64,000 nt of DNA from a phage, in sequence record OZ335961.1. One strand, written 5' to 3'. Below, piece by piece: positions 17,207 through 39,205 of the stretch. Position 1 is the first letter of the stretch; the number at the start of each line of letters is the position of its first letter. The translations under genes were made by a program, and so were the position numbers. Under the pieces are notes generated by a model, which was given only the letters and a program-made list of their open reading frames with translations, did no database searches and was not told the origin of the DNA.

Positions 17207-17677
17207 TTAATCATGTTTCCACACCCCATCGGTATTTGACCAAAGTCGCTGATTATCTGATCCTCGCCACAGCTTTTTGGTCGGAAGATTTTTCTCATAC
17301 TTCCCATCAATAATAACATCAACATATTTAAGCATTTCTAGTTGTTTAATATCTTCAAACTTATATCCTGTCCACAACCAAATGCTTTTATTGGGATAAA
17401 GATTTTTTACTGTTTGAACAATGCAATGAACAACATCTCGGTTATCAGGATAGAGGGGGTCTCCTCCAGTTATAGTTAATCCTTCTATATAATCATTATT
17501 CAAACATTCAATTAATTGCTCTAGTGTTTCACCAGTGAATGGAATACCATTTCTAGCATTCCATGTTGATTTATTATAACACCCCTCGCATTTATGCAAA
17601 CAACCTGTAACGAAAAGAACGACCCTGCATCCAGGGCCATTCACAAAATCGCAAGGATAAAATCTATCATAATTCAT
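17207..17677 (-). CDS. nrdG: Anaerobic ribonucleotide reductase activase NrdG (radical SAM)
   Basis: 156 aa, Cys cluster CLHKCEGC, coupled to nrdD. Confidence 0.92.
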   Translation of the reverse strand: MNYDRFYPCDFVNGPGCRVVLFVTGCLHKCEGCYNKSTWNARNGIPFTGETLEQLIECLNNDYIEGLTITGGDPLYPDNRDVVHCIVQTVKNLYPNKSIWLWTGYKFEDIKQLEMLKYVDVIIDGKYEKNLPTKKLWRGSDNQRLWSNTDGVWKHD

Positions 17678-19491
17678 TGGTGTTTAACCCTATGCATGAT
17701 TTCTTTATTTTTGCCGAGATTAAATCCGCGTTCGTTCGGATTTCCCAAATAACCACAAGTTCTTCTTATTGTGTTCATCTTTTTAGGATCAGTTTCTCCA
17801 CAAATAGAACAAACAAATCCGTTTTCAGTAGGAGTCATTTCATGTGTACTTCCGCATGTAAAACATTTATCTACTGGCATATTAACACCAAAATAATCTA
17901 AATGTTGTGCAGCATAATCCCATACAGCCTCAAGACCTTTTAAGTTATTTTTCATATCAGGAAGTTCAACATAAGAAATGTGACCACCTGTCGCAATGAA
18001 ATGATATGGTGCTTCTCGAGAAATCTTTTCAAACGGAGTAATATTTTCTTCTACTGAAACGTGGAAACTGTTAGTGTACCAGCCTTTATCAGTAACATCC
18101 TTTACACTTCCATATTTTTCAGTATCAAGTTTACAGAAGCGATAGCACAGGTTTTCAGCAGGTGTAGAATACAAACTAAAAGCAAAACCGGTTCTTTCAG
18201 TCCACTGTTTAAGACGAGCATTCATTTTAGTCAAAATTTCCTGTCCAATATCACGACCGACAAGAATATTCAATTCGTGAATACCAATGTATCCTAGGGA
18301 CACTGAACTTCTACCGTTTTTAAATAACTCAATTATGTCGTCATCAGGTTTAAGACGAACCCCGAATGCACCTTCTTGGTAAAGAATAGGAGCAACAGTC
18401 GCTTTAACTCCTTTTAAGGAACTAATTCTACACATCAAAGCTTCAAAACACAAATCCATTCGTTCATTGAACAATTCGGCAAATTTCTGTTCATTGAATT
18501 GTGTTCCAATATAAGAATCTAACGCAATGCGAGGAAGATTTAGTGTTACAACGCCAAGATTATTACGTCCATCAAGAATTTCATTACCAGTCGAATCTTT
18601 CCATACACTTAAGAAACTACGGCAACCCATTGGAGAAACAGGAATAGATGAACCGGTGATAGCTTTATTGTTCTTAGCTGAAATAATATCAGGATACATT
18701 CTTTTGCTTGCACACTCTAGAGCAAGCTGCTTAATATCATAGTTCGGATCGTCTTTATAAAGATTGACACCCTCTTCAACGAACATAACAAGTTTAGGGA
18801 AAATAGGAGTTATCCCATCACGACCAAGGCCTTTAATACGATTTTTCAGAATTGCTTTCTGAATCATTCGTTCGGTCCAGTCAGTTCCCGTACCAAACGT
18901 AATTGTTACAAAAGGCGTTTGTCCGTTTGAACTAAAGAGAGTATTTACTTCGTATTCATAAGCTTGGAATGCATCGTATACGTCTTTTTCTGTTTTAGAT
19001 TGGGCGTAATTCAACGCATCAGCGATTTGCCATTTTTCTGCATCCTCAATATGTTTTGCATAGGTGCGTTTAACATAAGGAGAAAGTACTTTATCTACAT
19101 TCGCAAAAGTCGTTCCGCCATATTGATGAGAAGCAACCTGTGCAGTAATTTGTGCCATAATTGCAGTAGCAACGCCGATTGATTTAGGAGTTTCAATCTG
19201 TGCATTACCGAGCTTAAATCCGTTTTCAAGCATTCCTTTTAAATCTACTAAACAGCAATTAGTAAATGGAAGAGCAGGGGAATAATCAATATCATGGAAA
19301 TGGATAATTCCGCTTTCATGCGCTTTCATAATAAAAGACGGGACCATATTTTTGGCAATGTGTTTAGACACAATACCAGCCATAAGGTCCCGTTGAGTTG
19401 GAAAAACACGAGAATCTTTATTAGCATTCTCGTTCAAAAGGTCTTTATTAGTTTTATGAATCAATCCTTCAATTTCTTTTTCAATTGTCAT
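17674..19491 (-). CDS. nrdD: Anaerobic ribonucleotide reductase NrdD (glycyl radical enzyme), uninterrupted
   Basis: 605 aa continuous ORF; C-terminal glycyl radical motif RTCGYLG; no intron detected. Confidence 0.95.
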   Translation of the reverse strand: MTIEKEIEGLIHKTNKDLLNENANKDSRVFPTQRDLMAGIVSKHIAKNMVPSFIMKAHESGIIHFHDIDYSPALPFTNCCLVDLKGMLENGFKLGNAQIETPKSIGVATAIMAQITAQVASHQYGGTTFANVDKVLSPYVKRTYAKHIEDAEKWQIADALNYAQSKTEKDVYDAFQAYEYEVNTLFSSNGQTPFVTITFGTGTDWTERMIQKAILKNRIKGLGRDGITPIFPKLVMFVEEGVNLYKDDPNYDIKQLALECASKRMYPDIISAKNNKAITGSSIPVSPMGCRSFLSVWKDSTGNEILDGRNNLGVVTLNLPRIALDSYIGTQFNEQKFAELFNERMDLCFEALMCRISSLKGVKATVAPILYQEGAFGVRLKPDDDIIELFKNGRSSVSLGYIGIHELNILVGRDIGQEILTKMNARLKQWTERTGFAFSLYSTPAENLCYRFCKLDTEKYGSVKDVTDKGWYTNSFHVSVEENITPFEKISREAPYHFIATGGHISYVELPDMKNNLKGLEAVWDYAAQHLDYFGVNMPVDKCFTCGSTHEMTPTENGFVCSICGETDPKKMNTIRRTCGYLGNPNERGFNLGKNKEIMHRVKHQ

Positions 19492-37070: not shown

Positions 37071-37349
37071 TTATTCTTTAAATCTAATCAATTTATTCAT
37101 AGACTTTGAAACTTCTGCACGGACCTCATGTAGGTTTTTAAGCTGTTCAAGACGTTGCTCATAGTAAGCAATTTCATCTTCTTCAAGACAGTCCTGTGAA
37201 TCTTCTTTAAGATAACGTGCATAGTCCTGGAAAGCTTTACGGACTACTTCTTGGAAGTCATCAAGACTTTGAATTTTCTTAGGAGCAACAGATACACGAC
37301 GAGGGGCAGTATAATACTCATAACCAAACCCTGCGCTTAATTGAGCCAT
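37071..37349 (-). CDS. Hypothetical protein
   Basis: ATG 37349 ([13 protein letters not shown]...) coupled to upstream stop; ORF-track start 37391 overlaps the upstream gene. Confidence 0.5.
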
Positions 37350-37615
37350 TAGTATTTTTCCTCTGGTTGGAACACAGCACGACAAGCCCACATACTGGCT
37401 TCTTTGAGTTTCGTTTTAGCAATAGTTAACTGATCGAGGCTTTCAGCATAATTCTTCGTGAATTCACAGTCTTCACAATTATCTAGTGCTTCCCAGAATT
37501 CATCATATAAAGCATCAAAGATAAGTCCTAAACGAACTTCAGCATCTTTGATAGCATTCACTTTACTGATTTTATCGTCAGTATGTGGCTTATAACCTTT
37601 AATATCTTCAATCAT
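37349..37615 (-). CDS. Small acidic protein at the T4 vs.4 position (possible Acb2-like sponge)
   Basis: 88 aa; position in the regB-ipII gene block; identification from gene order only, not sequence-verified. Confidence 0.4.
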
Positions 37616-37829
37616 ATTCTACTTCCTCACCAGTGCCCAAATCATATTCAACTAAACGAATAGGTTCATGAATGCCATATCCTTGAACAGAAATTTCTGT
37701 TGTAGGATAAATTCCATTAATATCACCCATGTTCCATGCTTCATTAAATTGCTGTTCGCCTGAATTACTAAACCATTCGGCGAAAGCATTTAACACATCT
37801 TCAGAACCTTCAATAATTATCTTTGCCAT
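37608..37829 (-). CDS. Hypothetical acidic protein
   Basis: 73 aa tiled ORF. Confidence 0.5.
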   Translation of the reverse strand: MAKIIIEGSEDVLNAFAEWFSNSGEQQFNEAWNMGDINGIYPTTEISVQGYGIHEPIRLVEYDLGTGEEVEYD

Positions 37830-38191
37830 TACAAGCTCTCAGTAAAGGTACGAGCAATAACGTCGCGTTGCTGTTCCGGAGTCAGAGAGTTAAAGCGAAC
37901 TGCATATCCGGATACACGGATGGTCAGCTGCGGATATTTTTCCGGATGCTTAACTGCATCTTCCAGAGTTTCACGACGCAGAACGTTAACGTTCAGGTGT
38001 TGACCACCTTCAATTTTAACTGTAGGTTGTGTTTCAATTTCAATTTCACGGGTGTGCAAACCGTAGAAAATTTCTGGGTCTACAAAAGAGTCCTCTTTAA
38101 AGGTTTTAGAAACAATAATTCGTGCTTGAATACCATCTTCAAAATAAATAGTACCTTTATGTGTGCCTTCAAGAATTTGATATGCTTTCAT
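37829..38191 (-). CDS. Autonomous glycyl radical cofactor (GrcA/YfiD-like)
   Basis: 120 aa; C-terminus [29 protein letters not shown] matches E. coli GrcA glycyl radical region. Confidence 0.85.
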
Positions 38192-38198
38192 ATAAACC

Positions 38199-38528
38199 TC
38201 AATTAGAAAATAAATTTATCCAAGATTGCTCTTTAATTAAAAATGGCTCAGAATCATATGCCATTAAACTTTGGGTGATTAGTCCTTTAAAAGGTCCATC
38301 AATAAATTCCATGGTAAAATACGGAATTTTATTCATTAATCTTGCATTAGGAGCAGTACACAAAACTCTGCATCCTTTGAATACGCCTTTTTGTAATTTG
38401 TACTGCTTAGGATAAAATTCGCTCAAGACGTTATTATTTGCTAAAATTTCAAAATGATTCACCAATTTATTTTTAATAGTTTTTGGCGAAAAATAAAGAT
38501 ATTCGAAAAGTTGCGTATCTGTCATCAT
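38199..38528 (-). CDS. Hypothetical protein
   Basis: Likely start [12 protein letters not shown] near 38528. Confidence 0.45.
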
Positions 38529-39112
38529 TGCATTCCAATTACGAAAAACTGCGGACGAGTAATACCACCAATGCAGCATTTACTATTGCAGCAGTGTTGC
38601 ACAGTTTCAATATGAATATCATAAATTTTATCCATATCAGGAGATTTAACAGGCTCATCGATTATATACAAAATTCGAGAAAGCGATAAACCTCTGAACT
38701 TGCTACCTCTATTACCAACAAAACTACGGACAGAATCGGTAAATAAGCGGAATCGAATATCATCGCTAGAATAACGAGAAAATTCTTTTTTAATGTGGCC
38801 CGCAGAAATTTTAGCGTAAGCTGAAGTATTAGAAAGAACAATAACTGTTCCACCATCATATAACCAATTAGCGGCAAAATTAGTTACTGCAGTTGATTTA
38901 CCAGATTGACGTCCACCATCTAGTCGAAGTGTGCAATACTGTTTGAGTAAGTCTTCAAATGGTGGGATATAATCGTTTTTACAAATTTCTTCTACTCTAG
39001 CATCAGAATGGTGTGTAAAAGCATTCATCAGGGATAGATAAGGACCAGTTAAAAATGTTCTCATTTTATTCTCTCTAAATTTGGGCCATTCCATGGCGCA
39101 TGAATTATCCAT
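38525..39112 (-). CDS. P-loop NTPase of unknown function at the position where T4 has denV
   Basis: Walker A GGRQSGKST, Walker B-like ILYIIDE; likely start MRTFLTG at about 39064. Confidence 0.55.
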   Translation of the reverse strand: MDNSCAMEWPKFRENKMRTFLTGPYLSLMNAFTHHSDARVEEICKNDYIPPFEDLLKQYCTLRLDGGRQSGKSTAVTNFAANWLYDGGTVIVLSNTSAYAKISAGHIKKEFSRYSSDDIRFRLFTDSVRSFVGNRGSKFRGLSLSRILYIIDEPVKSPDMDKIYDIHIETVQHCCNSKCCIGGITRPQFFVIGMQ

Positions 39113-39205
39113 TTCTGTATTTACCCATTACCGCACTTGGGCTCGACCTTATTACAGGTTGGCGGGAATCCCTCATAGAATCATGAGGTCCAGCTTGTTC
39201 CCATG

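Follow-up and report, generated by a model that had tools for sequence, protein, structure and literature searches.

How does a virulent phage come to carry a spare part for one of its host's fermentation enzymes, and why does only one half of that gene match the bacterial version in its DNA? The question is raised by vs.6, a gene in a 64,000-nt stretch of phage DNA from sequence record OZ335961.1 (the window, numbered from its first letter). Judged from its sequence, vs.6 is a chimera, in which an AT-rich N-terminal half belonging to the phage lineage is joined to a glycyl radical domain whose DNA hardly differs from that of grcA in the host genus. Here, the two parts are referred to as the head and the tail.

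Identity and composite structure of vs.6

What does the gene encode? The open reading frame (ORF) is vs.6 of a Tequatrovirus, and its product, Vs.6, is a GrcA/YfiD-type glycyl radical domain that stands alone; both the gene and its function were already known. Over 16 kb, the window shares ~96% identity with Escherichia phage vB_VIPECOOM01 and its relatives. Its gene order (tk.4-vs-vs.1-regB-vs.3-vs.4-vs.5-vs.6-vs.7-vs.8, with the lysozyme gene e nearby) is the same as in the annotation of phage RB51, where the counterpart is annotated vs.6/GrcA and has the same neighbors, and the order of the early-gene block from regB to vs.8 also agrees with that of T4 (X04567). Within the protein, the glycine-radical domain (Pfam PF01228, Gly_radical) occupies residues 60–101 (E=2e-18). 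Among solved structures, the protein matches E. coli GrcA best (6OWR, E=4.6e-42) and residues 697–759 of PflB next best (E=4.6e-26, identity 49/63), and a full-length match to phrog_1209 (residues 1–120, E=6.5e-63) includes the phage-type head. Residues 61–120 (EGGQHLN...TFTESL) are 100% identical to residues 68–127 of E. coli GrcA. The predicted radical site is Gly95 (codon GGA at 37907-37909), which aligns with Gly102 of GrcA and Gly734 of PflB. Close copies of vs.6 occur in 745 phage records, many of them carrying the annotation “autonomous glycyl radical cofactor GrcA.” More distant copies come from T4-like phages that infect Klebsiella, Enterobacter, Salmonella and Aeromonas, as well as from T5-like and jumbo phages.

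A preliminary description of the window had named the product a GrcA/YfiD-like autonomous glycyl radical cofactor, and the matches to PF01228, 6OWR, phrog_1209 and T4 Y06I all agree with this. The boundaries that it gave for the ORF were exact, but it missed that the gene lies on the minus strand. It was right that the C-terminal 60 residues match E. coli GrcA, but “almost identical” was an understatement, as the identity is complete. The radical motif RVSGYAV is present as claimed, at residues 92–98, and the conserved glycine has not been lost. The alignments that it recommended, to GrcA and to T4 Y06I, give identity across GrcA residues 68–127 and 118/120 identical residues, respectively; the existence of the T4 homolog also means, as it had said, that the gene is not new. 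What the preliminary description overlooked is the chimerism with the host gene at the level of DNA.

What is the evidence for this chimerism? First, the match is confined to one part of the gene. A grcA match was obtained in 5426/5426 complete E. coli genomes, with only gene nt 179–363 aligned (98.4%, E=3e-84). In a pairwise alignment, identity to grcA begins abruptly at TTGAAGGTGGT (codons 60/61) and ends at the stop codon. The three mismatches in between, at gene nt 324, 354 and 358, are all synonymous and all lie in the last 40 nt. Second, the head has no such resemblance in its DNA: it is identical to the E. coli grcA head at 98/199 positions, which is the chance level (96.5±4.6 in a shuffled control). 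The head protein can nonetheless be aligned weakly with GrcA back to residue 22 (ARIIVSK ~ ARCIVAK; HMMER/BLASTP). Instead, the heads of Tequatro-, Mosig-, Jiaoda- and Karamvirus resemble one another, with mutual nt identities of 69–87%. Third, base composition changes within the gene. GC content rises from ~0.3 in the flanks to 0.49–0.51 in the tail, and GC content at third codon positions (GC3) climbs from 0.18 in the head to 0.41 in the tail, a value shared by the E. coli tail. Fourth, synonymous divergence (pS) between the tail and E. coli is 0.067, as compared with 0.088 between E. coli and a neighboring Escherichia species, and 0.31, 0.44 and 0.54 between E. coli and Citrobacter, Klebsiella and Salmonella, respectively. 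An assembly artifact was considered and rejected: the same structure is found in ~650 independent genomes, including the T4 sequence of 1987 (X04567).

Variants of the gene were seen in other phages. In the vs.6 of vB_VIPECOOM01 (L183:8276-8644), 6 nt of the linker are duplicated in frame immediately ahead of the host-like tail (REIEIEIETQ vs REIEIETQ), and the tail carries E77K. In T5-like phages (L089, L090 and ~30 IMG/VR loci, L136–L162), a 122-aa version lies among tRNA genes, and its head, as in the T4-like phages, starts MKAYQ.LKSG. The resemblance points to movement of the phage-type gene, and not of bacterial grcA, between phage families that are unrelated.

The tail and the host genus

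Is the resemblance of the tail a general enterobacterial one, or does it follow the host of each phage? With E. coli grcA as the query, 645 phage records reach an identity of 90% or more; the matches listed are at 94–98.4% and come nearly all from Escherichia/Shigella phages, and in nearly every one of them the match starts at grcA nt 200 (nt 202 or 205 in two). Klebsiella phages reach 86–88% against the same query. With K. pneumoniae grcA as the query, 139 phage records are at least 90% identical; those listed at 94–98.3% are all Klebsiella T4-like phages (Jiaodavirus), matched over nt 202–369/374, whereas E. coli phages reach 84–87%. One Jiaodavirus tail matches an allele of K. pneumoniae exactly over 131 nt. 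The first panel of 80 GTDB grcA loci did not include K. pneumoniae and gave a misleading best match of 88% for Jiaodavirus, which was resolved when grcA from K. pneumoniae and K. variicola was added to the comparison. IMG/VR loci L163–L174, which are bacterial-type pflB/tdcE-like or grcA genes on short contigs, were excluded.

Other measures agree with these pairings. Tail GC3 is 0.41 in E. coli phages and 0.57–0.62 in Klebsiella phages (0.62–0.66 in Klebsiella bacteria), while phage heads have values of 0.18–0.25. The heads of Tequatrovirus and Jiaodavirus are homologous, with 72–76% nt identity, and are unlike either host. When sites in the tail are counted for four taxa, 17–18 pair the E. 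coli phage with E. coli and the Klebsiella phage with K. pneumoniae, 2 pair phage with phage, and 0 support the third grouping; the two phage-with-phage sites fall in the last 40 nt of the tail. A neighbor-joining (NJ) tree of tails places Escherichia with Tequatrovirus/Mosigvirus in a clade with 100% bootstrap support. The hosts can also be told apart at the protein level: E. coli and its phages have TLEDAVKH, and Klebsiella has TLLDAVEH, as do Jiaoda- and Slopekvirus. Since the tail is of the E. coli type in E. coli phages and of the K. pneumoniae type in Klebsiella phages, at least two independent host-to-phage replacements are called for, and the radical domain has thus been overwritten from the host chromosome at least twice. 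Transfer from phage to host was rejected, since the bacterial tails accord with taxonomy and with host GC3, and those of the phages fall within them.

Two bacterial records in the comparison are unusual. Klebsiella sp. WOUb02 has a full grcA copy on “plasmid unnamed4” (L025, 275 kb, labeled a plasmid). An enterobacterial-type grcA also appears in a genome labeled as the Firmicute “Vagococcus sp. WN89Y” (L033), which probably reflects contamination or mislabeling.

Is the exchange with the host recurrent? Several observations point that way, less firmly than for the two replacements themselves. E. coli grcA has at least two alleles, UMNK88 and SK1144, with 7 differing sites. The SK1144 allele has exact matches of 175 nt in RB51 (Tequatrovirus) and 163 nt in HX01 (Mosigvirus). 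These two phages differ from each other at 11/60 third positions in the head, at 1/54 in the tail core (p=0.005), and at 4/21 of the last 21 nt. Two of the sites that separate the alleles are within the tail, at gene nt 306 (tail nt 105) and gene nt 357 (tail nt 156). UMNK88 and the window phage have A,T at these sites; SK1144, T4, RB51, ZCEC15, pSs-1 and the Mosigviruses have T,C. In both phage genera, differences from the host cluster at the 3' end of the tail, where the ribosome-binding site and start of vs.5 lie, which fits conversion tracts ending inside the gene. The most likely mechanism would be replacement of the tail by homologous recombination (gene conversion) with fragments of host DNA during infection. 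T4 is able to recombine with homologous plasmid DNA, as in the insertion/substitution system. On balance, we lean toward a radical half that has been gene-converted repeatedly from the host chromosome in strictly lytic T-even phages, such that each genus, and possibly each lineage, would carry the grcA allele of recently infected bacteria, with the phage head and the last ~20 nt protected.

The alternative is that each phage lineage captured its tail once, long ago, and that the segment has changed very slowly since then, with no recurrent or ongoing exchange with the host. Such a history would explain why all the phages listed share one 5' boundary (about grcA nt 199–205), as expected from one founding event, and why the E. 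coli allele and the phage-specific bases at tail nt 174–180 are mostly common to Tequatrovirus and Mosigvirus. It is harder to reconcile with phages that differ at 18–22% of third positions in the head and yet match extant E. coli alleles exactly over 145–175 nt. Given such long matches beside such divergent heads, the tail core must be far younger than the split between Tequatrovirus and Mosigvirus, or else have been re-homogenized. Purifying selection on the protein offers no way out, as it cannot hold synonymous sites. Moreover, the window phage carries a different E. coli allele from that of T4, RB51, ZCEC15, pSs-1 and Mosigvirus. A single ancient capture is therefore improbable, and recurrent conversion is the account that we prefer.

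Probable function and a possible link to ribonucleotide reduction

What would a protein of this type do for the phage? YfiD and T4 Y06I are ~14-kDa “spare part” proteins (Andorfer et al. 2021, PMC8683613). As set out in a passage of that paper that cites Wagner et al. 2001, the activating enzyme of pyruvate formate-lyase (PFL), PFL-AE, puts a glycyl radical on YfiD/Y06I, and a complex with O2-cleaved PFL restores activity; the passage treats YfiD and Y06I as the only validated cases. A 2026 review describes the same mechanism (PMC13450708), and vs.6 is conserved across all T4-like genomes compared in PMC1524935. Selection on the tail is visible, with a nonsynonymous divergence (pN) of 0 among phages. 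With 98% identity between Vs.6 and Y06I, PFL rescue is by far the best explanation for what the window protein is likely to do. Specifically, host PflA (PFL-AE) would abstract a hydrogen from Gly95, and the radical-bearing tail would dock into host PFL whose own C-terminal radical domain oxygen has cut off, so that activity is restored. T-even phages shut off host gene expression; thus, the consumable part would have to come from the phage genome. A phage that supplies this part itself could keep PFL running in a microaerobic gut infection. PFL would then yield acetyl-CoA/ATP and formate, and formate would reduce the class III ribonucleotide reductase (RNR), which the phage itself encodes as NrdD/NrdG.

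Other targets, and other effects on the same target, have to be weighed against PFL rescue. The preliminary description had stated that the window encodes NrdD and NrdG, which it does, with both genes on the minus strand. It had also proposed that Vs.6 may protect host PFL or the phage NrdD, while marking the connection to NrdD as an inference. Protection of PFL accords with what is reported for the T4 ortholog; direct protection of NrdD is not supported. NrdD, too, is a glycyl radical enzyme cleaved by O2, so a spare part that is activated by NrdG or PflA and replaces the cleaved C-terminus of the NrdD encoded in the same window has some appeal. A role in nucleotide metabolism was speculated on by Nolan et al. 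2006, and spare parts for other glycyl radical enzymes are described as conceivable but unproven (PMC13450708, PMC8683613). In one jumbo-phage lineage, a grcA-like gene is even found directly downstream of nrdD. Nevertheless, this proposal was rejected on sequence. BLASTP gives no significant alignment between Vs.6 and the NrdD of the window (E=2.6), and the C-terminal architecture of NrdD is unlike the PflB/GrcA tail: it has a zinc ribbon, CFTCGS...CSICGE (CxxC...CxxC), followed by RRTCGYLGNPNERGF, which contains RRTCGYLG. The Vs.6 tail has neither the zinc ribbon nor RRxCGYLG, and differs from the NrdD C-terminus in length as well as motif. The tail is 100% identical to GrcA and 78% identical to PflB, and it tracks host grcA rather than nrdD. 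PFL is also the only target shown experimentally according to the account in PMC8683613. A spare part for NrdD is thus very improbable.

Equally hard to credit is a decoy directed against the host, in which Vs.6 soaks up PflA or caps PflB, redirecting carbon flow or blocking fermentation. The phage-specific N-terminal half differs from that of GrcA, and because the N-terminal region of GrcA influences radical installation by PFL-AE (PMC13450708), a different head could alter the outcome. However, T4 Y06I is reported, in the passage citing Wagner et al. 2001, to restore PFL activity rather than to inhibit it (PMC8683613). In addition, the tail, with its radical glycine, is the same as the functional domain of the host, and a decoy has no need of a functional glycine kept under a pN of 0. 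It is also unlikely, if easier to envisage, that Vs.6 serves, additionally or mainly, other PFL-type enzymes with a PflB-like C-terminus, such as TdcE (2-ketobutyrate formate-lyase). The tail has 2–3 DNA matches per E. coli genome, consistent with paralogous PFL-type C-termini, and the NCBIfam formate C-acetyltransferase model covers residues 56–120 of Vs.6; against this, GrcA is documented only with PflB (PMC13450708, PMC8683613).

If PFL is the target, how might NrdD benefit? PFL is the cell's source of formate. Formate provides both reducing equivalents of class III RNR, as stated in a passage of PMC4493059 that cites Mulliez 1995. An indirect link between Vs.6 and NrdD through formate is therefore plausible, and the connection is better worded as metabolic (PFL to formate to NrdD) than as structural; in this form, it is testable. 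The two genes do occur together in other phages. For example, jumbo Klebsiella phage RCIP0023 (L092:1-1716, a ~350-kb lineage) and an IMG/VR contig (L121) have a grcA-like gene 10 nt 3' of nrdD; on two other jumbo contigs (L119 and L122), no nrdD is found within 400 nt upstream of the grcA-like gene. The T5-like phages that have a grcA-like gene likewise encode class III RNR (PMC3653736).

Taken as a whole, the favored explanation, comprising the identity of vs.6, PFL rescue, its benefit to the phage, and a host-derived tail obtained by recombination, is one that we hold with considerable confidence. Several points nevertheless weigh against it. Owing to its divergent N-terminal half, Vs.6 does not reach the 170-bit cut-off of TIGR04365 (IPR011140), the NCBIfam equivalog model for GrcA: the score is 154.7 bits for the window protein and 148.4 for that of Jiaodavirus, versus 234 for E. 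coli GrcA. In the NJ tree, the clade of Jiaodavirus with the K. pneumoniae complex has a bootstrap value of 34% on 183 nt. No phage in the collection is at least 90% identical to Salmonella grcA, and the tails of Karamvirus (Enterobacter), Slopekvirus, Pseudotevenvirus, and T5-like, Aeromonas and jumbo phages are 67–84% identical to sampled bacterial grcA. The Karam-, Slopek-, Pseudoteven-, T5-like and jumbo tails are old and ameliorated, and host tracking is limited, in this sample, to Tequatrovirus/Mosigvirus and Jiaodavirus. The case for more than one conversion within E. coli phages comes down to two polymorphic sites. T-even phages degrade host DNA, so recombination of this kind should be rare. 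As for function, co-occurrence with nrdD on its own proves little because all these phages infect facultative anaerobes, and the physiological benefit, namely, supply after host shut-off and formate for NrdD, is something that we infer.

Genomic context and comparison with known systems

The features of vs.6 and the two RNR genes are listed in Table 1. A scan for promoters and terminators around vs.6 gave no excess over shuffled sequences. With no promoter-like excess nearby, vs.6 is probably co-transcribed with vs.8-vs.7.

Table 1. Positions in the 64,000-nt window of the vs.6 features and of the genes for class III RNR
Feature	Position	Strand	Description and basis
vs.6 coding sequence	37829..38191	minus	ORF of 120 aa + stop; ATG 38191-38189, TAA 37831-37829; ortholog of T4 Y06I/Vs.6, phage GrcA-type spare part
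Phage-type head	38014..38191	minus	Residues 1-59 and part of codon 60 (gene nt 1-178); rich in AT; kept among T4-like phages
Host-derived tail	37829..38013	minus	Glycyl radical domain, gene nt 179-363; identity of 182/185 nt with E. coli grcA nt 200-384
Exact match to E. coli UMNK88 grcA allele	37869..38013	minus	145 nt, gene nt 179-323; longest exact match computed
RVSGYAV codons	37898..37918	minus	Residues 92-98; sequence reading and alignments
Shine-Dalgarno GAGG	38197..38200	minus	5 nt upstream of vs.6 ATG; overlaps vs.7 stop codon; sequence reading
TAATG overlap, vs.6 stop/vs.5 start	37827..37831	minus	One shared base; translational coupling; end of host-like DNA
nrdD, class III anaerobic RNR	17674..19491	minus	Pfam NRDD E=1.8e-171; context, formate consumer, not a docking partner of Vs.6
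nrdG, NrdD activase, radical SAM	17207..17677	minus	Pfam Fer4_12 E=2.2e-48 + Radical_SAM; context only

Some neighboring genes merit mention in their own right. The product of vs.4 (37349-37615, minus strand, 88 aa), two genes downstream of vs.6, matches the Acb2/Tad1 hairpin domain (PF24729, E=1.3e-19) and corresponds to the anti-CBASS cyclic-nucleotide sponge Acb2. The product of vs.8 (38525-39112, minus strand) weakly matches phrog_2, a family of terminase large subunits, over residues 60–165 (E=5e-6) and may have a core of the P-loop ATPase type. Beyond vs.8, RB51 and T4 have denV before the internal-protein genes. In the window, denV is absent from the gap between vs.8 and an ipII-like ORF (39113-39205), and a tblastn search with a T4 DenV sequence gave no match anywhere in the window. 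Approximately 90 nt after vs.8 are two internal-protein-like ORFs (100 and 191 aa) that start MKTYQEFI/MKTYKEFI.

What does vs.6 add to our understanding of phage evolution? The gene itself is not new: T4 Y06I is an established spare part, and the gene, which already bears the annotation GrcA, occurs in T-even genomes by the hundred. What is added, modestly surprising and easily tested, is the host-matched tail. A literature search found no description of the DNA-level chimerism or host tracking of vs.6, although earlier priority is possible, as Wagner et al. 2001 and Miller et al. 2003 were outside the search. vs.6 provides a clear case from nature in which a virulent phage has overwritten part of its own gene with host chromosomal DNA, and has done so host-specifically. 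If the radical half has indeed been converted repeatedly, vs.6 would offer a natural, trackable record of recombination from host to virulent phage, with a possible adaptive value in compatibility with host PflA/PflB. If conversion is recurrent, the tail allele could mark the recent host of a phage, and the rate of host-to-T4 recombination could be measured despite host DNA degradation.

How does vs.6 compare with known systems? By every feature that was compared, it belongs to the T4 Vs.6/Y06I family. Its closest relative is the T4 gene for Y06I (vs.6; ORF 63.1 of X04567), with 351/363 nt identical. The T4 gene likewise lies between vs.7 and vs.5 and is coupled to vs.5 through TAATG; it differs in T47A, T54P and R73H. 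Relative to UMNK88, the closest sampled allele to the window, the window tail has 3 differences and the T4 tail has 5; the T4 tail is also 3 differences from SK1144. E. coli GrcA (YfiD) resembles Vs.6 in being a small stand-alone protein with the motif RVSGYAV and with PflA and PflB as presumed partners. Unlike GrcA, Vs.6 has 59 N-terminal residues that are only weakly similar, and it is 7 residues shorter. Expression also differs: Vs.6 is expressed from a phage operon, whereas E. coli grcA is under FNR/ArcA control. The C-terminal glycyl radical domain of PflB (PDB 1H16), the second structure match described above, is the part that Vs.6 is thought to replace. Vs.6 has neither the 10-stranded barrel nor the catalytic cysteines of PflB, and so cannot be an enzyme alone.

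With respect to evolutionary behavior, the closest analog is cyanophage psbA, in that segments of a gene are exchanged with host alleles. The cyanophage psbA/psbD genes, which encode the photosystem II core, have reportedly undergone intragenic recombination between host and phage. Like these genes, vs.6 has a segment, bounded within the gene, that is near-identical in DNA to the gene of the phage's own host genus and differs between phages of different hosts. As with psbA, a lytic phage's own copy of a rapidly consumed host protein part would sustain host energy metabolism after shut-off. vs.6 differs from psbA in serving fermentation and radical repair rather than photosynthesis, and in having one host-like half only, with a constant 5' boundary. 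It also differs in residing in a phage that degrades the DNA of its host and chemically distinguishes that DNA from its own.

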